From positions 25,864 through 89,863 of the forward strand of contig JACOXY010000012.1 of the NCBI GenBank assembly GCA_016182095.1: DNA of 64,000 nucleotides, written 5' to 3'. The stretch comes from Candidatus Liptonbacteria bacterium (GTDB taxonomy: Bacteria; Patescibacteriota; Minisyncoccia; UBA6257; JACOXY01). The translations under genes and the position numbers were made by a program. The notes beneath the pieces are model-generated. The model searched no databases, was not told where the DNA came from, and saw only the letters and a list, made by a program, of their open reading frames with translations. Of the stretch, positions 7,624-62,445 are shown piece by piece. How positions within the stretch are numbered: the stretch's first letter is position 1; each line of letters starts with the position of its first letter.

Positions 7624-7881
7624 ATGAGAAAGATTGTTATGCTTTTAGTTATTGGCATTGTAGCCGCTGTCTTTGGCACAGCGAACGCCTATCATGACCC
7701 CGAGTGCTACTACCGCTACGACTCGTATTATCGTGAATATTACCTGTATTGTCCACCTCCTTATGTTTATGTACCCCCGCCACGATATTACCGGTATGAG
7801 TATAGATCGCCATTAGACGAATTACTACATGGACTCACGCGCCATCATCACGGTCATCCCCGTCACCACCGCCACCATTAA
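7624..7881 (+). CDS. small secreted Tyr/Pro-rich peptide with His-rich C-terminus
   Basis: Signal peptide, YY/PP-rich core, C-terminal HHHGHPRHHRHH. Confidence 0.5.
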   Translation: MRKIVMLLVIGIVAAVFGTANAYHDPECYYRYDSYYREYYLYCPPPYVYVPPPRYYRYEYRSPLDELLHGLTRHHHGHPRHHRHH

Positions 7882-7930
7882 CACTAAAAATTAGGTGGAC
7901 AAAAGCGAGATATTATCTCGCTTTTTTCAT

Positions 7931-7960
7931 TTGACAAAATGGTGCTTTTTGTGCTATAAT
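7931..7960 (+). promoter_or_regulatory. sigma70-like promoter (TTGACA-18-TATAAT) driving a long structured leader
   Basis: Consensus hexamers. About 175-nt leader with nested hairpins (gtagctt...aagctac; ccacc...ggtgg) before the strong SD at 8126. Confidence 0.5.
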
Positions 7961-8091
7961 ATACTTAGCAAGCTGTGAGAGGTTCCCCTCTAGCCAGCTT
8001 ATAGAGTAGCAAAAAACGCGCAAAAAGGACCCTGCGTAGCTTCCACCTTCGTTAAAACTTCGGTGGACAAGAAAGCTACGGAGGAACAAGG

Positions 8092-8125
8092 GTCGCCTAC
8101 GCTCTACAGAGCTATGGCGGACCAA
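8092..8125. repeat. 34-bp perfect direct repeat, copy 1 (left flank of high-GC cassette 1)
   Basis: gtcgcctacgctctacagagctatggcggaccaa; identical copy at 8600-8633. Confidence 0.8.
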
Positions 8126-8136
8126 GGGAGGAAAGC

Positions 8137-8523
8137 ATGCGAACGAAGGGGATGTTGATGTTGATCGCGGTTTTGACGGTGCTCCTCTGCCTTACGGCAG
8201 TGGAGACGGTATCGGCCGGCTCGCCGGGCTGGAGCAACAGGAGCGGGGGGTTCGGCATTTCCGGCGGCGTAAGCGGTAGGAGCGTGGCGCCGTACGATGT
8301 CTATCAGCGCGGCAACTACTGCGACAACCCCAACCGCTGCCTACGGTGGCGGAGGGCGGGGAGCTACGTCGGATGCGACGGCTGGTCCGGCTCGCAGTCA
8401 GAGAATGCATACTGGCTGGACTTCGACGTCTGGCGCCAGAGATCAAGCCGCAACAGTACCGGTGCGTTGGTCATGGGTGGCGGAAGAGGGCGCGGCGGCA
8501 GAGCGACCGGCTGGCGTAGGTAG
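8137..8523 (+). CDS. high-GC small secreted Gly/Arg-rich protein (likely foreign)
   Basis: Strong SD gggaggaaagc; signal peptide; GC3-rich codon usage that contrasts with its neighbours. Confidence 0.5.
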   Translation: MRTKGMLMLIAVLTVLLCLTAVETVSAGSPGWSNRSGGFGISGGVSGRSVAPYDVYQRGNYCDNPNRCLRWRRAGSYVGCDGWSGSQSENAYWLDFDVWRQRSSRNSTGALVMGGGRGRGGRATGWRR

Positions 8524-8529
8524 AACGGC

Positions 8530-8576
8530 ATCCAGCCGCAGTTTCCCGGAAACTGCGGCTGGATCCCAACTTTTTA
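8530..8576 (+). terminator. terminator (perfect 15-bp stem)
   Basis: atccagccgcagttt-cccgg-aaactgcggctggat followed by a T run. Confidence 0.6.
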
Positions 8577-8599
8577 TATTTCTAAGTGGCTCGTTCCAA

Positions 8600-8633
8600 G
8601 TCGCCTACGCTCTACAGAGCTATGGCGGACCAA
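8600..8633. repeat. 34-bp perfect direct repeat, copy 2 (right flank of cassette 1)
   Basis: Identical to 8092-8125. Confidence 0.8.
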
Positions 8634-8721
8634 AGGTAGTGGGTCATTTAGAAATGTAAATGTATAGAGAAAGTTGTCATGAAAACTTGCGCAAAAGGGC
8701 AATAGGTGGTATTAAACTTGT

Positions 8722-10908
8722 ATGACAAATTTAATAACAATGGTAAATAGAAAAAATTATAAACTAATAGTTGTGGAGGTTTTTGCTTTGCCTTTATTGT
8801 TAACTGGTTTCGCGGTATTTGCGTCGGGCAATGATCCATCTGTTGATTTGAGTACCAATAGGTCCATAGTTAATCAGGGCGAGTCCTTCACTCTTTCCTG
8901 GACTTCATACAACACTAATTCTTGTATTGCTTCTGGCGGCTGGTCGGGCTCCAAATCTTTGTCTGGTTCGCAAATTATAACACCAGCTTTCAATAGAACT
9001 TATACCATTACCTGCTCTCATTTCGGAGTCAAACAAGCATCGGATAGCGTAACCGTAACCGTACAAACCGAACCACCGCTTTCAGTTGATCTAACCATAT
9101 CAAGCGGCGTTATCCAGCAAGGCAATTCTGCGGTGTTAAGCTGGGCCTCAACCAATGCTGATTTTTGTACGGCTTCTGACGGTTGGTCCGGCAATAAATC
9201 AATTTCCGGCTCCGAAACTGTATCACCATCACGTAATACCGGTTACACCCTAACCTGCTACAATTCACGCGGACAAGTATATGATCATGTTTCCCTTTCG
9301 GTTGTGCAGCAATCACTGCCAACAGTATCTTTGATGGCAAACCCGGAAAATGTCACGAATGGTAATTCATCTTCATTAATCTGGAATACTTCAAACGCCG
9401 ACACCTGTACGGCTTCCGGCGGATGGTCAGGCAATAAATCAACTGCCGGATCACAAACAGTTTTTCTTTCAAATAATACGACTTACACGCTTACCTGCTC
9501 TAATCCCATAGGGCAAGCGTCTGACAGTGTTACTGTATTGGTAAATCAATCGCAAGGAGTTTCTGTTTCTTTAAGCGCAAGTCCATTGAGCATAACCCAT
9601 GGTAACTCTTCAATCTTGAGCTGGAGCTCATCCAACGCAAATACTTGCACCGCTTATAGTGGATGGTCTGGCAGTAAATCTCTTTCTGGTTCACAAACAG
9701 TATTCCCGTCGGTTAATACTACTTACACTTTGACTTGCCAAAATTCTATGGAGCAGACGGATACCGAAAGCGTTACAGTGCTTGTAGATCAGGTTCAAAA
9801 TTTTCCATCGGTGTTTTTAACAGCCAACCCGACGAGTATTAACCAAGGAAATTCGTCATTTTTGGGCTGGAACGCGTCTAATGCCGATTATTGTACCGCC
9901 TCCGGCGGATGGTCCGGCAGTAAATCAATTTCCGGATCGCAGACTATAACGCCATATTTAAACACAACCTATACCCTAACCTGCTACAATTCACGCGGAC
10001 AGACATCTGACAGTGTTACCGTGTTTGTAAATCAATCGCAAGCGACCCCAACGTTAGTTTTTAGCGCTGCGCCAACGGTAATAAATAGAGGTGATACGAG
10101 CTATTTGACTTGGACTTCAAATAATACCACTTCATGCATAGCGGGTGGCGGTTGGTCAGGAACTAAAACGGTTTCCGGATCACAGGCCATAAATCCCTTG
10201 ACACAAACAAATTACGCGCTTACGTGCTTTGGGTCTCAAGGATCAGTAACTGCCGAAGCCCTGGTTGCGGTTCTCTCCCCAAGCTTAGAGCAGTCATCTC
10301 TTGGGGCTTCGTGCGGAATAAGCGATGCCAATGTTTTAACCGGCGAGGACGTTGTTTTCAGCGCTTTCCAGTCGGGCGGGAGAGCTCCTTATACCTATAC
10401 TTGGAGCGGAGCCGCGCAGGGCAGTGGAATTTCAAGAACGATGAGTTTCGGCACGGTTGGCACAAAAACAGCCACCGTGACAATAACTGACGCGGACGGT
10501 AGAATTGCTTCCGGCAGTTGTATTACCAATGTTTCAGAAAGAGCAGTAACTAAACCGGCACAACCTACCGAGGAGGTATTGGGCGAGCAAGCGCCCACCT
10601 GTGAAGTAAAAAAGGTTTTTGCTTGTTCTGATGGGGAAAACTACAATATAGATGAAAATGGAGATGCTTATGATAAGGATGGCAAGCTGATCTATAGCGG
10701 CGCCGACAACAACACCGCCACTACCACACCAGATGACACCGCCGAAAATGAGAGAAATGGCAGGGTGGCATCTCTATTCTTTAATGAAGCAGGCGGTTTA
10801 TCGGGATTGGGCTTTCTGTTAGTGTGGTACTTCTTAATACTTTTAACGATTGGATTTGCTGTTACAATGTATCGGCTAGTCAAGGGTAAATCCAGGGTTA
10901 ACTACTAG
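8722..10908 (+). CDS. large surface protein with six tandem ~88-aa repeats, a PKD-like domain and a C-terminal TM anchor
   Basis: N-terminal TM/signal; repeat unit SxLxWxSxNAxxCTASGGWSGxKSxSGSQTxxPxxNTTYTLTCxN...SDSVTV repeated six times; C-terminal hydrophobic segment plus basic tail. Confidence 0.65.
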   Translation: MTNLITMVNRKNYKLIVVEVFALPLLLTGFAVFASGNDPSVDLSTNRSIVNQGESFTLSWTSYNTNSCIASGGWSGSKSLSGSQIITPAFNRTYTITCSHFGVKQASDSVTVTVQTEPPLSVDLTISSGVIQQGNSAVLSWASTNADFCTASDGWSGNKSISGSETVSPSRNTGYTLTCYNSRGQVYDHVSLSVVQQSLPTVSLMANPENVTNGNSSSLIWNTSNADTCTASGGWSGNKSTAGSQTVFLSNNTTYTLTCSNPIGQASDSVTVLVNQSQGVSVSLSASPLSITHGNSSILSWSSSNANTCTAYSGWSGSKSLSGSQTVFPSVNTTYTLTCQNSMEQTDTESVTVLVDQVQNFPSVFLTANPTSINQGNSSFLGWNASNADYCTASGGWSGSKSISGSQTITPYLNTTYTLTCYNSRGQTSDSVTVFVNQSQATPTLVFSAAPTVINRGDTSYLTWTSNNTTSCIAGGGWSGTKTVSGSQAINPLTQTNYALTCFGSQGSVTAEALVAVLSPSLEQSSLGASCGISDANVLTGEDVVFSAFQSGGRAPYTYTWSGAAQGSGISRTMSFGTVGTKTATVTITDADGRIASGSCITNVSERAVTKPAQPTEEVLGEQAPTCEVKKVFACSDGENYNIDENGDAYDKDGKLIYSGADNNTATTTPDDTAENERNGRVASLFFNEAGGLSGLGFLLVWYFLILLTIGFAVTMYRLVKGKSRVNY

Positions 10909-42670: not shown

Positions 42671-42693
42671 CATTGAGCTTATTATGCAGTTTA

Positions 42694-42727
42694 AACATTC
42701 TAACATTCTTGAGAATGTTAGAATGTT
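42694..42727. promoter_or_regulatory. 34-bp palindrome (15-bp perfect arms, 4-bp spacer) downstream of the ArsR-like gene
   Basis: aacattctaacattc-ttga-gaatgttagaatgtt. Confidence 0.6.
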
Positions 42728-42738
42728 TATTGATGAAA

Positions 42739-43024: not shown

Positions 43025-43058
43025 AGTTTTCCAAAACATTCTAACATTCTCAAGAATG
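43025..43058. promoter_or_regulatory. 34-bp palindrome upstream of the ArsR-like gene (putative operator)
   Basis: aacattctaacattc-tcaa-gaatgttagaatgtt; same arms as 42694-42727 with the spacer inverted. Confidence 0.6.
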
Positions 43059-43186
43059 TTAGAATGTTTTGGAATGGGTAATGAGTGGATAAGAAACCTT
43101 TTGCATTAAACTATGTCAGTAAATGGTTAATACAAGAATGTCGTAATGTTGTGGGCAAGATTTTAAGGTAAAAATCGCTCCGATGT

Positions 43187-52324: not shown

Positions 52325-52447
52325 TTTTCTTATTCCATTCTCTGGTTGCAAACTACGGTAAGTGTAGCACTTAGAAATTATTGCTGTCAATATAGAAAGG
52401 GCCCGAGGAAAATTCCCCGGGCCTCGAGTTCTGACGGCCTGCTGATT

Positions 52448-52768
52448 TCAGACAGCAGGCAGGTTCACGAGCTTCGCGCGGAGAGCGCGCAGACGTCTCC
52501 GGCCAAGCCAGAGAGCGTCCGAAACGCTCTTCAGCAGATCCCGCAGTCCGTCCGGAGTCTCGGGACACACTGCCCCAGCATCGTACCCGGCCTCCGCGGC
52601 CAGGCGATCGAAGAGCTCGCGCGCCTTGATGTTGCCAACCACCAAGGGATTGAACCGTGGATCCCGCTCGGCCTGCACCAGAAACCCGTACAGAGCCGCC
52701 GCCGGATCGCGCATCTGGCTCCCGATCTCCGTCTGGATGTCCAGACGCCTCTTCTCGTTATACTTCAT
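52448..52768 (-). CDS. high-GC hypothetical protein (cassette 3, likely foreign)
   Basis: Strong SD gaggaggaaagg before the ATG; GC3-rich codons; its own TTGACA-17-TATAAT promoter and a ~110-nt hairpin-containing leader. Confidence 0.5.
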   Translation of the reverse strand: MKYNEKRRLDIQTEIGSQMRDPAAALYGFLVQAERDPRFNPLVVGNIKARELFDRLAAEAGYDAGAVCPETPDGLRDLLKSVSDALWLGRRRLRALRAKLVNLPAV

Positions 52769-52875
52769 GCCTTTCCTCCTCGCCCGTCCTAAACCAGTTT
52801 TACTGGTTGGATTAGGGCTGTTTTTTGGCTAAGTAGCACCATGCTACCTAGCATCCCAACCAGCATCCTAATTGT

Positions 52876-52904
52876 CATTATATTATAAAATTTTCATTTT
52901 GTCA
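52876..52904 (-). promoter_or_regulatory. sigma70-like promoter (TTGACA-17-TATAAT) for the high-GC gene 52448..52768
   Basis: Reverse complement reads ttgaca-aaatgaaaattttataa-tataat. Confidence 0.5.
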
Positions 52905-52907
52905 AGC

Positions 52908-52935
52908 GCAAAAAAACCAGGCTATTTCCTGGTTT
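52908..52935 (-). terminator. rho-independent terminator after the higA-like gene
   Basis: Minus strand: aaaaccagg-aaatag-cctggttttttt. Confidence 0.55.
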
Positions 52936-53203
52936 TATCGTAGTCTTTTTGCAAATTAAGCCAAAATTCGGGACTCATATTGAAGAAGTGCCCAAGACAA
53001 AGAGAGGTTTCGGAATTAACGCTCGCGTCCCCAGCGATCAAGCCATTAAGATAGGCCTCGTTTAGCCCCGTACCTTTTGCCACCGCTTCTACATCCAGAT
53101 TATTCGGCTTCATAAATTCTTCCAATAATACCTCTCCTGGATGAACCTCCAGCTTTGCGAGCTTCTTCTTGTGCCTAATTTCCTGCCGAATCCTTGGCGT
53201 CAT
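52922..53203 (-). CDS. higA: HigA-family (Xre HTH) antitoxin-like protein, orphan
   Basis: HPGEVLLEEFMKP...GLNEAYLNGLIAG...SPEFWLNLQKDYD is the HigA/VapI signature; no HigB/RelE-like partner found. Confidence 0.65.
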   Translation of the reverse strand: MTPRIRQEIRHKKKLAKLEVHPGEVLLEEFMKPNNLDVEAVAKGTGLNEAYLNGLIAGDASVNSETSLCLGHFFNMSPEFWLNLQKDYDKTRK

Positions 53204-53234
53204 TATTGCCCCCATGCGCAAACGATCTGGAGAG

Positions 53235-53264
53235 ATTATAACAAAGGGACGCCTTCTTTGTCAA
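53235..53264 (-). promoter_or_regulatory. sigma70-like promoter (TTGACA-18-TATAAT) for the higA-like gene, abutting repeat element A
   Basis: Reverse complement reads ttgaca-aagaaggcgtccctttgt-tataat. Confidence 0.5.
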
Positions 53265-53458
53265 CCAGGTAGTAGAAATGCGAGTGAAGTTTTTGAAAAA
53301 TATGGTAACACCATCGATCAAATCCACAGAGATATTATCGGTCAGTATTTATACCCGATCGATAACAATCGATAACCTCGTCAATTGAACGATCGTTTGT
53401 TATACGAGGTCTTGGAGTTGGTAGAAAGAAATGCTCGTATTTTCACTACCTGGTCAAG
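53263..53458. mobile_element. ~196-bp MITE-like element A with terminal inverted repeats
   Basis: The ends ccaggtagtagaaatgcgag / ctcgtattttcactacctgg are inverted copies. The core (~130 bp) is 95%+ identical to the reverse complement of 62259-62390. Confidence 0.6.
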
Positions 53459-62258: not shown

Positions 62259-62445
62259 ACCAGGTAGTGAAAATGCGAGCATTTCTTTCTACCAACTCCA
62301 AGACCTCGTATAACAAACGATCGTTCAATTGACGAGGTTGACGAGGTTATTGATTGTTATTGATCGGGTATAAATACTGAACGAGAAGCAGAAATCGAAC
62401 CCGCGTCTCAACCTTGCCGGGTAGTAGAAGTGCGATTACATTTTT
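62259..62445. mobile_element. MITE-like element B, inverted copy of element A, abutting tRNA-Gly
   Basis: 62259-62390 is about 95% identical to the reverse complement of 53330-53458. A second 20-bp motif copy (ccgggtagtagaagtgcga) lies at 62417. A tRNA-3'-half-like remnant (gcgggttcgatttctgc) lies between them. Confidence 0.55.

Follow-up and report, generated by a model that had tools for sequence, protein, structure and literature searches.

The window analysed here is a 64,000-nucleotide (64-kb) stretch of the chromosome of Candidatus Liptonbacteria, a tiny, groundwater-type bacterium of the Candidate Phyla Radiation (CPR). Surrounded by core chromosomal genes (D-Ala-D-Ala ligase, purF-like, PGK), in a neighbourhood of housekeeping and cell-envelope genes, lies a short transcription unit with a 128-aa open reading frame (ORF), whose start as a separate unit is marked by the intrinsic terminator of the gene before it. 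No phage genes are seen in the 64-kb window, and no regulator gene stands next to the unit. The locus comprises the following features.

7901..7925, + strand: intrinsic terminator (11-pair stem, then a T run) belonging to the 85-aa secreted-protein gene upstream (7624-7881)
7931..7960, + strand: sigma-70-type promoter, TTGACA-18-TATAAT with an extended -10 TG, 12/12 matches
7967..8136, + strand: leader of ~170 nt with host-like GC, containing hairpin A, hairpin B and then repeat copy 1
8092..8125, + strand: repeat copy 1, a 31-nt imperfect palindrome (8092-8122) plus CAA; stem-loop of -16.6 kcal/mol
8126..8131, + strand: Shine-Dalgarno sequence GGGAGG, 5 nt 5' of the ATG; its block, GGAGGAAAGCATG, is near-identical to that of a sister cassette
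8137..8523, + strand: 128-aa ORF, putative Sec-type signal peptide followed by 101 aa of mature protein
8527..8567, + strand: GC-rich terminator hairpin with 20-nt arms, 95% complementary, followed by a U-rich tract
8573..8662, + strand: long hairpin with repeat copy 2 at its tip; 25-bp stem of 19 Watson-Crick and 6 G-U pairs, no A-C
8600..8633, + strand: repeat copy 2, a 31-nt palindrome (8600-8630) with CAA on each side (8597-8599, 8631-8633)

The canonical promoter, leader, strong Shine-Dalgarno sequence, Gly/Arg-rich ORF with a signal peptide, terminator hairpin and perfect direct repeat described in a first-pass annotation of this DNA are all confirmed where it had placed them. The promoter is one of only three perfect TTGACA/TATAAT sites in the 64 kb, the remaining two of which precede the second high-GC cassette and its neighbour. 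The anatomy from the left flank to the terminator was independently supported by a Logan contig from another sample (L001), which runs from the left flank through copy 1 and the ORF to the terminator with a sequence identical to that of the window and yet differs from the window by a 46-bp indel.

The leader had been described as hairpin-rich, which holds for its single hairpins (hairpin A, 7970-8000, folded as 7968-8004, z -3.1; hairpin B, 8031-8084, folded as 8028-8090, z -4.1; copy 1, z -2.5), whereas the leader folded as a whole reaches a z of only -2.0. A scan of the leader and repeat with Rfam assigns no family at or above the gathering threshold; three tRNAs are the only hits in the 64-kb window that reach it, and the best sub-threshold hits in 7850-8750 (E 0.17) are chance fits to the terminator/promoter region. 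At the 3' end, the terminator hairpin is strongly folded (-32.3 kcal/mol, z -7.8). The long hairpin behind it folds with -38.3 kcal/mol and z -6.55 on the plus strand, against -23.3 kcal/mol and z -2.86 on the minus strand; the 25-bp stem around copy 2 is plus-strand-specific and of RNA type.

Composition and distribution of the 128-aa gene

The N-terminus of the 128-aa protein, MRTKG-MLMLIAVLTVLLCLTAV-ETVSA|GS, reads as a Sec signal peptide, and the remaining 101 residues include 21 Gly, 15 Arg, 13 Ser and 6 Trp, with 15 basic against 6 acidic residues; the gene product would therefore be secreted as a small cationic protein if the signal is read correctly. AlphaFold returns a pLDDT of 45.8 for this protein and of 54.5 for the 106-aa product of the sister cassette, and these models are too poor for fold searches.

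The ORF lies in a GC-rich island, as had been claimed for the segment from ~8130 to 8580. In 100-nt windows from 8100 to 8549 the GC content is 0.56-0.70, compared with a window mean of 0.433, and the GC island is put at 0.64-0.70 compared with 0.43 for the whole window. The island extends from ~8092/8126 to 8567, where the terminator marks its end, and stops 33 nt short of copy 2. By codon position the GC content is 0.52/0.61/0.81 (GC1/2/3), and the three-base periodicity fits this frame only. The GC3 of 0.81 is not genome-typical, as the 57 other ORFs have a GC3 of 0.44±0.047 with a maximum of 0.58. Nor is it a by-product of the Gly, Arg and Ala content of the protein, since its own amino acids combined with host codon usage predict 0.52±0.04 (z 6.9). 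The codon choice is at the same time atypical for high-GC bacteria, with AGR in 7/16 Arg codons and TTG in 4/9 Leu codons; GGC, GCG, CGC and CCG are codons that the host favours anyway, and for Arg and Leu the ORF partly follows host usage. At 0.47-0.51, the GC3 of the window's ribosomal protein and release factor genes is ordinary. A structured non-coding RNA in place of a gene can be discounted, as the codon-position GC is that of a reading frame, the RNA of the ORF folds with a z of -0.43, which indicates no structured RNA, and there is no Rfam match.

No homologue of the protein was found. Among 5.8 billion clusters the sole match is the protein itself, and among 1.84 billion representatives the only other match, P0004, is a Nextera-adapter artefact that contains VSYTHLDVYKRQ and is not a relative. 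Pfam, NCBIfam, PHROGs and PADLOC give no family match for the ORF in any frame, the other reading frames and strand show no homology in Pfam or NCBIfam, and nothing among phages, plasmids and viral contigs matches the ORF. The high-GC donor that the first-pass annotation had thought possible finds no support: no donor, high-GC or otherwise, emerges from the collections searched, and the case for horizontal transfer is one of composition and patchy distribution.

The only syntenic relative found, by protein look-up, is distant (contig L006; anchor gene 53% identical). Its flanking genes are conserved, as is the 85-aa neighbour in the form of a homologue (E 6e-16), but the small secreted proteins encoded at this locus are others, of normal GC3, and neither a homologue of the 128-aa ORF nor this leader nor the 34-mer is present. 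Close relatives were also sought through the neighbouring 210-aa gene in genome and metagenome contig collections, with none found, and it is because they are missing from the collections that no empty site was found. The look of a horizontally acquired gene is borne out: given the outlying GC3, the orphan protein and its absence from the syntenic relative, a recent foreign origin of the 128-aa gene is likely, and from these we infer horizontal transfer. In the literature on integrons or horizontal transfer in Patescibacteria and Liptonbacteria, nothing relevant was found.

The 34-nt repeat and the sister cassette

The 34-mer, GTCGCCTACGCTCTACAGAGCTATGGCGGACCAA, occurs exactly twice in the window, at 8092-8125 and 8600-8633, on the plus strand in both cases and with 34/34 identical positions; none of 100 shuffles (0/100) matches it even when 3 mismatches are allowed. 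The 31-nt palindrome of copy 1 has CAAGG on each side by direct reading (8087-8091, 8123-8127) and ends just 5' of the ribosome-binding site (RBS). The left flank enters copy 1 as …GGAACAAGG, and copy 2 leaves into the right flank as AGGTAGTGGG…; between them, the sequence starts as GGGAGGAAAGC after copy 1 and ends as …CGTTCCAA before copy 2. The stretches that adjoin the repeats on the inside, GGGAGGAAAGC... and ...GCTCGTTCCAA, do not constitute an inverted repeat. Identity between the copies extends to 36/37 nt, and since it runs into the non-palindromic tail CAA(A/G)GG, the copies reflect copying rather than convergence. The perfect identity shows a recent event, of whatever kind.

The objection that the 34-mer might be a common dispersed repeat finds no footing in the window or in three public collections. 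No further copy with up to 14 mismatches exists elsewhere in the 64-kb window, and the 34-mer, its 24-nt core and a structure-preserving degenerate pattern have zero matches in genome, metagenome and viral collections. The only two 34-mers in 64 kb bracket exactly the foreign ORF, a placement that fits a link with its acquisition better than chance. Among the ~60 ORFs that are 99 aa or longer in the 64-kb window, no integrase, transposase (HUH-type or other), other recombinase, Cas protein or reverse transcriptase was detected. In Logan contigs from two samples, the sequence stops at position 30 of copy 1 and restarts at position 5 of copy 2.

A sister cassette with the same order of elements lies 44 kb away on the opposite strand.

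52377..52905, - strand: sister cassette with promoter, leader, GAGGAGGAAAGGCATG, ORF and two terminal hairpins
52877-52905, - strand: perfect promoter, starting TTGACAAAATG, followed by a ~100-nt leader
52448-52768, - strand: 106-aa orphan ORF, GC3 0.76

Its protein is unrelated to the 128-aa protein, although both are high-GC orphans; it has no flanking direct repeat, and its context is unchanged in 6 samples. Alignment of the regions upstream of the two ORFs scores 115.5, with much of this total supplied by the consensus promoter and RBS; 56 other upstream regions aligned to cassette 1 give 68.9±9.1 (maximum 90). The two leaders show colinear similarity, but the leader interior scores 66 where random segments give 43.5±6.6, and its score is attained by ~10 unrelated loci of the window; nhmmer finds the similarity not significant. 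This modest resemblance, an outlier among upstream regions though not in the window-wide scan, is suggestive of leader homology between the cassettes. A 3' motif shared after both cassettes, ATTTCTAAGTG, is not beyond chance (20/100 shuffles).

Origin of the repeat and the gene

We tentatively favour the view that the locus is a lineage-specific, self-contained, moron-like expression islet and that its twin stem-loops are a locally duplicated palindromic module. A consensus promoter would lead through a structured leader and a strong RBS to an orphan ORF of foreign composition and an intrinsic terminator, and the product, a cationic protein of ~101 aa rich in Gly, Arg, Ser and Trp, would be exported via Sec. 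The islet would be placed where the relative likewise holds variable small secreted proteins. Its ORF would have been acquired recently, most likely from an unsampled GC-rich source, and would be expressed from a resident-type promoter/leader/RBS module similar to the one before the second, unrelated high-GC orphan. The 34-nt repeat would then be neither a crossover scar nor a target-duplication scar bounding an insert. It would instead be a 31-nt palindromic stem-loop module, with CAA(GG) on either side, that occurs twice in one transcription unit. One copy stands just ahead of the RBS; the other occupies the loop of a 25-bp RNA stem that follows the terminator and would be older, and the pair would stem from a recent local duplication, insertion or gene conversion. 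Most plausibly the copies would have a role at the level of RNA, where they may define or protect the ends of the mRNA or bind one common factor.

The first-pass annotation had read the repeat as a target-site duplication or a pair of att-like sites, such that a promoterless mini-cassette of ~508 bp (RBS, ORF and terminator) would have entered a resident transcription unit at a 34-bp site within its leader, by site-specific (att-type) recombination, by Campbell-type integration of a small circle or by staggered-cut insertion, with the 34-mer duplicated at its ends. The bracketing of the GC island by an exact 34-nt direct repeat with two copies only in the window, a dyad symmetry like that of recombinase core sites, a unit of integron-cassette size downstream of a strong promoter, and the lack of the gene in the relative all speak for this reading, and the break of the Logan contigs right at the repeat is expected of a true repeat longer than k=31. 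It is weakened, however, by the long hairpin: the stem arms (8573-8598 and 8634-8662) straddle copy 2 and the proposed right junction, so that arms from insert and host would have had to form a 25-bp Watson-Crick/G-U stem that is absent from the reconstructed attP (z -0.2) and attB (z -2.2) and folds in the observed context alone. With the 5' arm inside the supposed insert and the 3' arm outside, the repeat copies do not behave as junctions. The final 33 nt of the supposed insert are moreover AT-rich and host-like, and the RBS block, supposedly part of it, is common to the sister cassette, which has the same architecture without the repeat. No integrase or transposase is detected in the 64 kb, terminal inverted repeats are missing, and 34 bp is beyond the known range of transposase target duplications; to our knowledge, none is nearly as long. 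We consider this origin unlikely. An ambiguity of assembly, in which the chromosome would carry a single 34-mer and the 508-bp segment would be a separate circle or tandem array threaded in by the assembler, draws on the same contig ends, and at k=31 the graph of an integrated copy is indeed identical to that of a circle together with an empty site. We find this barely credible, as a single contig of SRR12113424 runs from the left flank through copy 1 into the ORF with no branch to the right flank, a 508-bp replicon is implausible, and the analogous sister cassette is integrated without a repeat in 6 samples.

The 31-nt palindrome could itself be a very small mobile repeat, dispersed like REP/PATE or MITE elements, that landed twice at CAA(GG), moved by a transposase (e.g. 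HUH-type) encoded elsewhere and unconnected with the arrival of the ORF. The CAAGG on both sides of copy 1 and the CAA on both sides of copy 2 are in keeping with this, as are the position of copy 2 in the would-be loop of a pre-existing long hairpin and the leader end that results when copy 1 and one CAAGG are removed, GGAGGAA-CAAGG-GAGGAAAGCATG, which resembles that of the sister cassette; identical direct hairpins are also generally known from the ends of IS200/IS605-type elements. Yet there are two copies only in 64 kb, both of them here, the core is without a match in genome, metagenome and viral collections, no HUH-type or other transposase is detected in the window, and the short flanking repeats were spotted post hoc and are possibly due to chance, which makes such a mobile repeat distinctly unlikely. 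That the gene is native, a fast-evolving effector without horizontal transfer, whose synonymous sites, promoter, RBS and hairpins were selected for both extreme expression and mRNA stability and whose repeat copies are 5' and 3' stabiliser hairpins, appears improbable. The perfect promoter, the strong RBS with a hairpin directly in front of it and the long 3' hairpin behind a strong terminator would all concur with it, as would the same combination at the second gene and the partly host-like Arg and Leu codons in a host that prefers GGC, GCG, CGC and CCG. Against it, the GC3 lies 6-7 sd over the amino-acid-based expectation, whereas neither the ribosomal protein and release factor genes of the window nor the small secreted genes at the same locus of the relative depart from ordinary values, and a recent arrival better fits the orphan status and the absence from the relative. 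Dyad symmetry of the 31-nt element would also suit a pair of DNA operators at which one dimeric regulator loops or blocks the unit, and other palindromes in the window bracket small predicted HTH regulator genes (1608/1970 and 42693/43034). This we hold to be highly improbable, since identity into the tail indicates copying, the G-U-rich stem extension at copy 2 works in plus-strand RNA only, and no regulator gene is adjacent.

Comparison with known systems

The genomes of CPR bacteria are tiny, and a dependence on host cells is presumed for these organisms; their gain of genes, especially of secreted effectors, is poorly documented. The window holds two very recent-looking acquisitions, small orphan genes with a composition that is not yet host-like, each behind a perfect and similar promoter/leader/RBS and one bracketed by an identical structured 34-mer. 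The product of the 128-aa gene is a candidate for a highly expressed, cationic, Trp/Arg/Gly-rich secreted effector. There is a small chance that these loci represent a gene-capture and expression platform of Liptonbacteria and perhaps other CPR, in which a conserved promoter-leader-RBS module takes up foreign ORFs almost exactly at the start codon and the 34-nt palindrome serves to recombine a 508-bp mini-cassette that can be excised. This platform would follow an integron-like logic without IntI and attC, with two instances in the window that each hold an unrelated, un-ameliorated high-GC orphan, and if the 5' module and the 34-mer did belong to a capture or mobilisation mechanism, this would be a new route of gene gain in ultra-small bacteria.

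The resemblance to integron cassettes and CALIN lies in the ~500-bp unit with one orphan ORF, atypical GC, a strong external promoter (perfect, and 170 nt upstream of the ORF) and a folded element like a recombination site 3' of the ORF. Unlike an integron, the locus has a 34-nt repeat that is identical at both ends rather than a 7-bp shared core, it has its own terminator, and it consists of one cassette only, with no more cassettes following. The attC boxes RYYYAAC/GTTRRRY are absent on either strand at the expected ends of 8573-8662 and 8092-8125, and IntI is missing in that no Phage_integrase domain occurs among the ~60 ORFs of the 64 kb. Xer pdif modules and CIMEs likewise combine short cargo with two ~30-bp dyad-symmetric sites and no recombinase inside; pdif sites, however, are of the 11-6-11 XerC/XerD type, usually alternate in orientation and belong to plasmids, whereas both 34-mers point the same way on a chromosome, and a longer RNA-type stem encloses one of them.

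REP and IS200-IS605 palindromes (PATEs) are, like the repeat described here, imperfect hairpins of 30-35 nt that lie in direct orientation in extragenic transcribed DNA, and REPs have a known stabilising effect on the mRNA upstream of them. Members of these families occur in many copies and are accompanied by a Y1 HUH transposase, in contrast to the two copies here, with no such enzyme detected in the window. Cas1-Cas2 duplicates a repeat of ~34-nt length, and both repeat length and hairpin would fit a CRISPR mini-array, in which repeats of 23-50 nt alternate with spacers of comparable length; a CRISPR-type duplication was rejected, as the window has no cas genes or arrays, there are two repeats only, and the 474-bp 'spacer' is a complete, correctly oriented gene. 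Target duplications of transposons and IS elements measure from a few to ~15 bp and go with terminal inverted repeats and a transposase.

The morons of lambdoid prophages resemble the unit in being single small genes with their own sigma-70 promoter and intrinsic terminator and with a deviant base composition, and their products are often secreted or surface-acting, as the 128-aa protein is predicted to be. Phage morons are not bracketed by identical 34-nt hairpins, and they lie in prophages, whereas this unit stands among core chromosomal genes in 64 kb where no phage genes are detected. If no capture mechanism is at work, the locus would still offer a clear case of a moron-like islet that is not part of a prophage.

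Composition and anatomy of cassette 1

Cassette 1 is a strong and complete transcription/translation unit with a signal-peptide product. Its GC content is 0.56–0.70 in 100-nt windows across 8100–8549, versus a window mean of 0.433, and the GC-rich segment, canonical promoter, well-placed Shine-Dalgarno sequence, signal peptide, and terminator hairpin described by the first-pass annotation are all borne out.

7931–7960, + strand: promoter, TTGACA-18-TATAAT with a TG extension (12/12 score)
8137–8523, + strand: 128-aa ORF, with GGGAGG at the right spacing upstream
8527–8567, + strand: terminator, a GC-rich hairpin with 20-nt arms and a U tract (−32.3 kcal/mol, z −7.8)

Perfect promoter sites number three in the 64-kb window, that of cassette 1 included, against a chance expectation of 0.06, and the hairpin at 8527–8567 is a convincing terminator. 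The N-terminus of the 128-aa protein, as read off the sequence, is composed of the n-, h-, and c-regions of a Sec signal peptide (MRTKG, MLMLIAVLTVLLCLTAV, and ETVSA|GS, respectively). The leader had been called hairpin-rich, and it does hold three hairpins (z −2.5 to −4.1 each), but in its entirety it attains just z −2.0; neither the leader nor the repeat matches an Rfam family.

The 128-aa ORF has a foreign composition, with GC1/2/3 values of 0.52/0.61/0.81, the GC3 of the 57 other ORFs being 0.44 ± 0.047 (maximum 0.58). Because Gly, Arg, Ser, and Ala abound in the protein and the host favors GGC, GCG, and CGC, the GC3 expectation was recomputed by conditioning on the amino acids of this protein and the codon usage of the host (2000 simulations). 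The conditioned expectation is 0.52 ± 0.04, and the observed value (z 6.9; other window genes, −3.2 to +4.1) was reached in 0 of 2000 simulations, such that the GC3 is not genome-typical. Three-base periodicity is compatible with the 128-aa frame alone and the RNA fold is not more structured than shuffles (z −0.43), which together identify 8137–8523 as coding sequence and exclude a GC-rich structured RNA in place of a gene.

The 128-aa protein is a true orphan, and the homology check gave it no relative. A word-indexed search of 5.8 billion clusters matched only the protein itself, and exhaustive phmmer against 1.84 billion representatives added one repeat protein, rejected as a homologue because it is an artefact carrying a Nextera adapter translation, VSYTHLDVYKRQ. 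No frame of the ORF matches Pfam, NCBIfam, PHROGs, or PADLOC, and phage, plasmid, and viral collections hold no protein- or DNA-level match to cassette 1. AlphaFold without an alignment was uninformative (pLDDT 45.8).

The surrounding locus and a sister cassette

The window genes are ordinary Candidate Phyla Radiation (CPR) housekeeping genes, encoding D-Ala-D-Ala ligase, a purF-like enzyme, PGK, TIM, CTP synthase, ribosomal protein L9, a release factor, and FtsEX, among others. Of the ~60 window ORFs, none matches an integrase, transposase, Cas protein, or reverse transcriptase in Pfam. The neighbors of cassette 1 are a secreted protein of 85 aa, rich in Tyr, Pro, and His, and, downstream, one of 728 aa made up of Ig-like repeats. 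The latter (gene at 8722–10908) consists of repeated units of ~80 aa, with DNA repeats at 9111, 9351, and 9837 and weak Ig/PKD-like matches; promoter prediction gave no good candidate in 8567–8740, so read-through transcription from cassette 1 may reach its gene. A neighboring 210-aa protein is HYT12_02645 of the Candidatus Liptonbacteria MAG (110,954-bp contig). The genes beside the 128-aa ORF bear HYT12 locus tags and the 128-aa protein is recorded only from a Logan assembly, not NCBI, so its gene appears uncalled in the deposited MAG annotation.

L001, a contig from an independent Logan assembly of another sample (SRR12113424), is base-identical to the window over the left flank, the first 34-mer, the ORF, and the terminator, and differs from the window by a 46-bp indel upstream. 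These 46 bp are missing from the window at ~7490 and present in Logan contigs L001–L003 (alignment A1, L001 columns 811–856). They fall at the 5′ end of the neighboring gene, whose product is 233 aa in L001–L003 and 208–210 aa in the window; the MAG differs here at strain level from the populations of SRR12113420/24/30.

The sole syntenic relative found, GCA_964616565.1, is distant (anchor gene 53% identical). The flanking genes are kept there, as is a homologue of the 85-aa neighbor (E 6e-16); a homologue of the 128-aa ORF, a similar leader, and the 34-mer are all missing. The presence of cassette 1 is lineage-specific. At this locus the relative has four different small secreted proteins of normal GC3 (0.49–0.54), encoded consecutively at 146–2242 of contig CAZTTN010000024.1:

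125 aa
210 aa, with GGQGGRGG repeats
115–122 aa, Tyr/Pro/His-rich, homologous to the window's 85-aa protein
85 aa, Arg-rich

The locus appears to be a hotspot of small secreted protein turnover. The GC3 outlier and the absence from the relative uphold the earlier proposal of horizontal acquisition, and the 128-aa gene was very probably acquired recently from a foreign source; that it is instead native and hyper-expressed, without any transfer, is decidedly improbable. The simplest reading is that the gene came recently, from a GC-rich source not yet sampled, into a locus turning over small secreted proteins. Two cautions attach to it: the databases searched contain no donor, and the codon choice (AGR in 7/16 Arg and TTG in 4/9 Leu codons) is not the classic one of high-GC bacteria.

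The sole other strong GC island in the window, 52377–52814, belongs to a second unit, cassette 2:

52877–52905, − strand: perfect promoter, beginning TTGACAAAATG as in cassette 1
− strand: structured leader of ~100 nt
− strand: RBS block, GAGGAGGAAAGGCATG versus GGGAGGAAAGCATG in cassette 1
52448–52768, − strand: 106-aa ORF (GC3 0.76, z 6.2)
− strand: 3′ end with two terminal hairpins

The 106-aa protein, HYT12_02910, is an orphan and shows no relationship to the 128-aa protein; six samples carry it in the same context. The upstream modules of both cassettes align colinearly (TTGACAAAATG … TTAG.A.GCTG … CAAAAAAC … TAAAAC-loop hairpin … GGAC … GGAGGAAAG(G)CATG) with a score of 115.5; the regions upstream of 56 other genes give 68.9 ± 9.1 (maximum 90). 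For the interior of the leader by itself the score is 66, versus 43.5 ± 6.6 for random window segments (p ~5e-4 as a single pre-specified comparison), but about ten unrelated loci equal it in a full window scan, and nhmmer found no significant similarity between the two leaders. The alignments are no more than suggestive of a common origin of the 5′ modules. Cassette 2 lacks a flanking direct repeat, so the repeat is not needed for the promoter/leader/RBS/ORF architecture. Cassette 2 adjoins a HigA-like HTH gene (52922–53221), which has the window's third perfect promoter (53235–53264). That one CPR genome has two high-GC orphan genes, each preceded by a perfect expression module and the two modules similar, is the most interesting lead here and, with one distant relative for comparison, still a lead.

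The 34-mer and its two contexts

The perfect 34-bp repeat previously described, GTCGCCTACGCTCTACAGAGCTATGGCGGACCAA, occurs in exactly two copies in the 64-kb window, both on the + strand, at 8092–8125 (copy 1) and 8600–8633 (copy 2), with identity continuing to 36/37 nt. The rest of the window contains no further copy with up to 14 mismatches, and 100 dinucleotide shuffles gave no match even with three mismatches. Two identical stem-loops lie in or beside the transcript, each with a 3×3 internal loop (GUCGCC-UAC-GCUC-UACA-GAGC-UAU-GGCG(G)AC). The flanks of copy 1 are purine-rich and pairing goes no further. Copy 2 caps a 25-bp stem, 8573–8598 paired with 8634–8662, containing 19 Watson-Crick pairs, 6 G-U pairs, no A-C pair, and one bulge. 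This long stem is strand-specific (−38.3 kcal/mol, z −6.55 on the + strand; −23.3 kcal/mol, z −2.86 on the − strand), and the occurrence of all six non-Watson-Crick positions as G-U on the + strand points to maintenance of an RNA element on that strand. Because the two 34-mers differ nowhere, the long stem is older than their duplication.

The 34-mer contains a 31-nt palindrome, flanked on both sides by CAAGG at copy 1 and by CAA at copy 2, a pattern read from the sequence and noticed post hoc. Removal of copy 1 with one CAAGG leaves GGAGGAA-CAAGG-GAGGAAAGCATG, a leader end resembling that of cassette 2, and removal of copy 2 with one CAA leaves a long hairpin with a small closing loop. These restored sites suggest copying or insertion of the palindrome itself at two places close together; taken alone, the flanking repeats are weak evidence.

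Other repeats occur in the window. A family of 36-nt palindromes (AACATTCTAACATTC-N4-GAATGTTAGAATGTT and variants) is found at these sites:

1608–1643 and 1970–2005: pair
42693–42728 and 43034–43069: pair
24808, 25388, and 32566: related sites

The pairs, spaced 341–362 bp, flank two small paralogous − strand genes, by reading winged-helix/ArsR-like regulators, which are likewise small genes between direct repeats; the palindromes are probably operators of the regulators they bracket. The 1611/1973 pair lengthens to a 52-nt direct repeat (83% identity). Inverted repeats of ~120 nt at 53335–53454 and 62259–62387, 8.8 kb apart (86-nt core, 97% complementary), enclose FtsEX, a release factor, tRNA-Thr, VIT1, an ABC transporter, and a redoxin, with tRNA-Gly directly outside; the segment could be one that inverts, or a regulatory region could have been duplicated. 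An 83-nt inverted repeat (28846–28928/48976–49058) is 84% complementary, with 20 kb between its arms.

Origin of the cassette and comparison with known systems

In the reading we tentatively favor, which as a whole falls somewhat short of probable, the 128-aa ORF would have come by horizontal transfer and would be expressed from a resident-type promoter, leader, and RBS, and the mature 101-aa protein may be exported as a putative effector. The mature protein contains 21 Gly, 15 Arg, 13 Ser, and 6 Trp, with 15 basic versus 6 acidic residues, a composition reminiscent of antimicrobial or surface-binding peptides. The twin stem-loops may be a locally duplicated palindromic module working in RNA, copy 1 as a 5′ hairpin beside the RBS and copy 2 as a 3′ hairpin past the terminator, with candidate roles in stability, processing, or the binding of one common factor.

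The first-pass annotation found the repeats to fit a target-site duplication or att-like boundaries, and an exact repeat pair does bracket the ORF; this boundary reading is upheld just in part, and the structure around copy 2 contradicts it. Insertion via the 34-mer would make the 5′ arm of the long stem (8573–8598) part of the insert and the 3′ arm host DNA, so that their 25-bp complementarity would be a coincidence between different molecules. Only the observed copy 2 context forms the long stem (z −5.2); the reconstructed attP (z −0.2) and attB (z −2.2) junctions and observed copy 1 (z −1.8) do not. The supposed insert ends in 33 nt that are AT-rich and resemble the host, and the RBS block immediately inside copy 1 is common to cassette 2. 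These observations make the att-type cassette model doubtful. A dispersed REP/MITE-like palindrome, with which the flanking CAAGG and CAA repeats would agree, is improbable, and a pair of DNA operators, set against the + strand-specific G-U pairing, highly so. An assembly-path artefact draws on the Logan contigs of two samples, which stop at copy 1 position 30 and restart at copy 2 position 5 because a k = 31 de Bruijn graph meets a 34-nt repeat; at the k-mer level an integrated cassette looks the same as an empty site accompanied by a 508-bp circle. In L001 the left flank leads by way of copy 1 to the ORF with no branch, which mildly favors integration, and the chance of an artefact is very remote.

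Among known systems, a CRISPR-like origin of the 34-nt duplication was considered and rejected. Integron cassettes resemble cassette 1 in size, orphan content, and place behind a strong promoter, but cassette 1 has neither attC boxes nor IntI, and its repeat is 34 identical nt, not a 7-bp core. The pdif modules and CIMEs likewise have short cargo between two ~30-bp dyad sites with the recombinase absent, whereas the site architecture and context of cassette 1 are unlike theirs. REP or IS200/IS605-type ends form similar hairpins, but within the 64 kb the 34-mer has just two copies and Pfam finds no transposase, of the HUH type or any other. The closest in working is the phage moron, which likewise has a promoter and a terminator to itself and deviates in composition, although cassette 1 is not within a prophage; cassette 1 is a moron-like or cassette-like islet.
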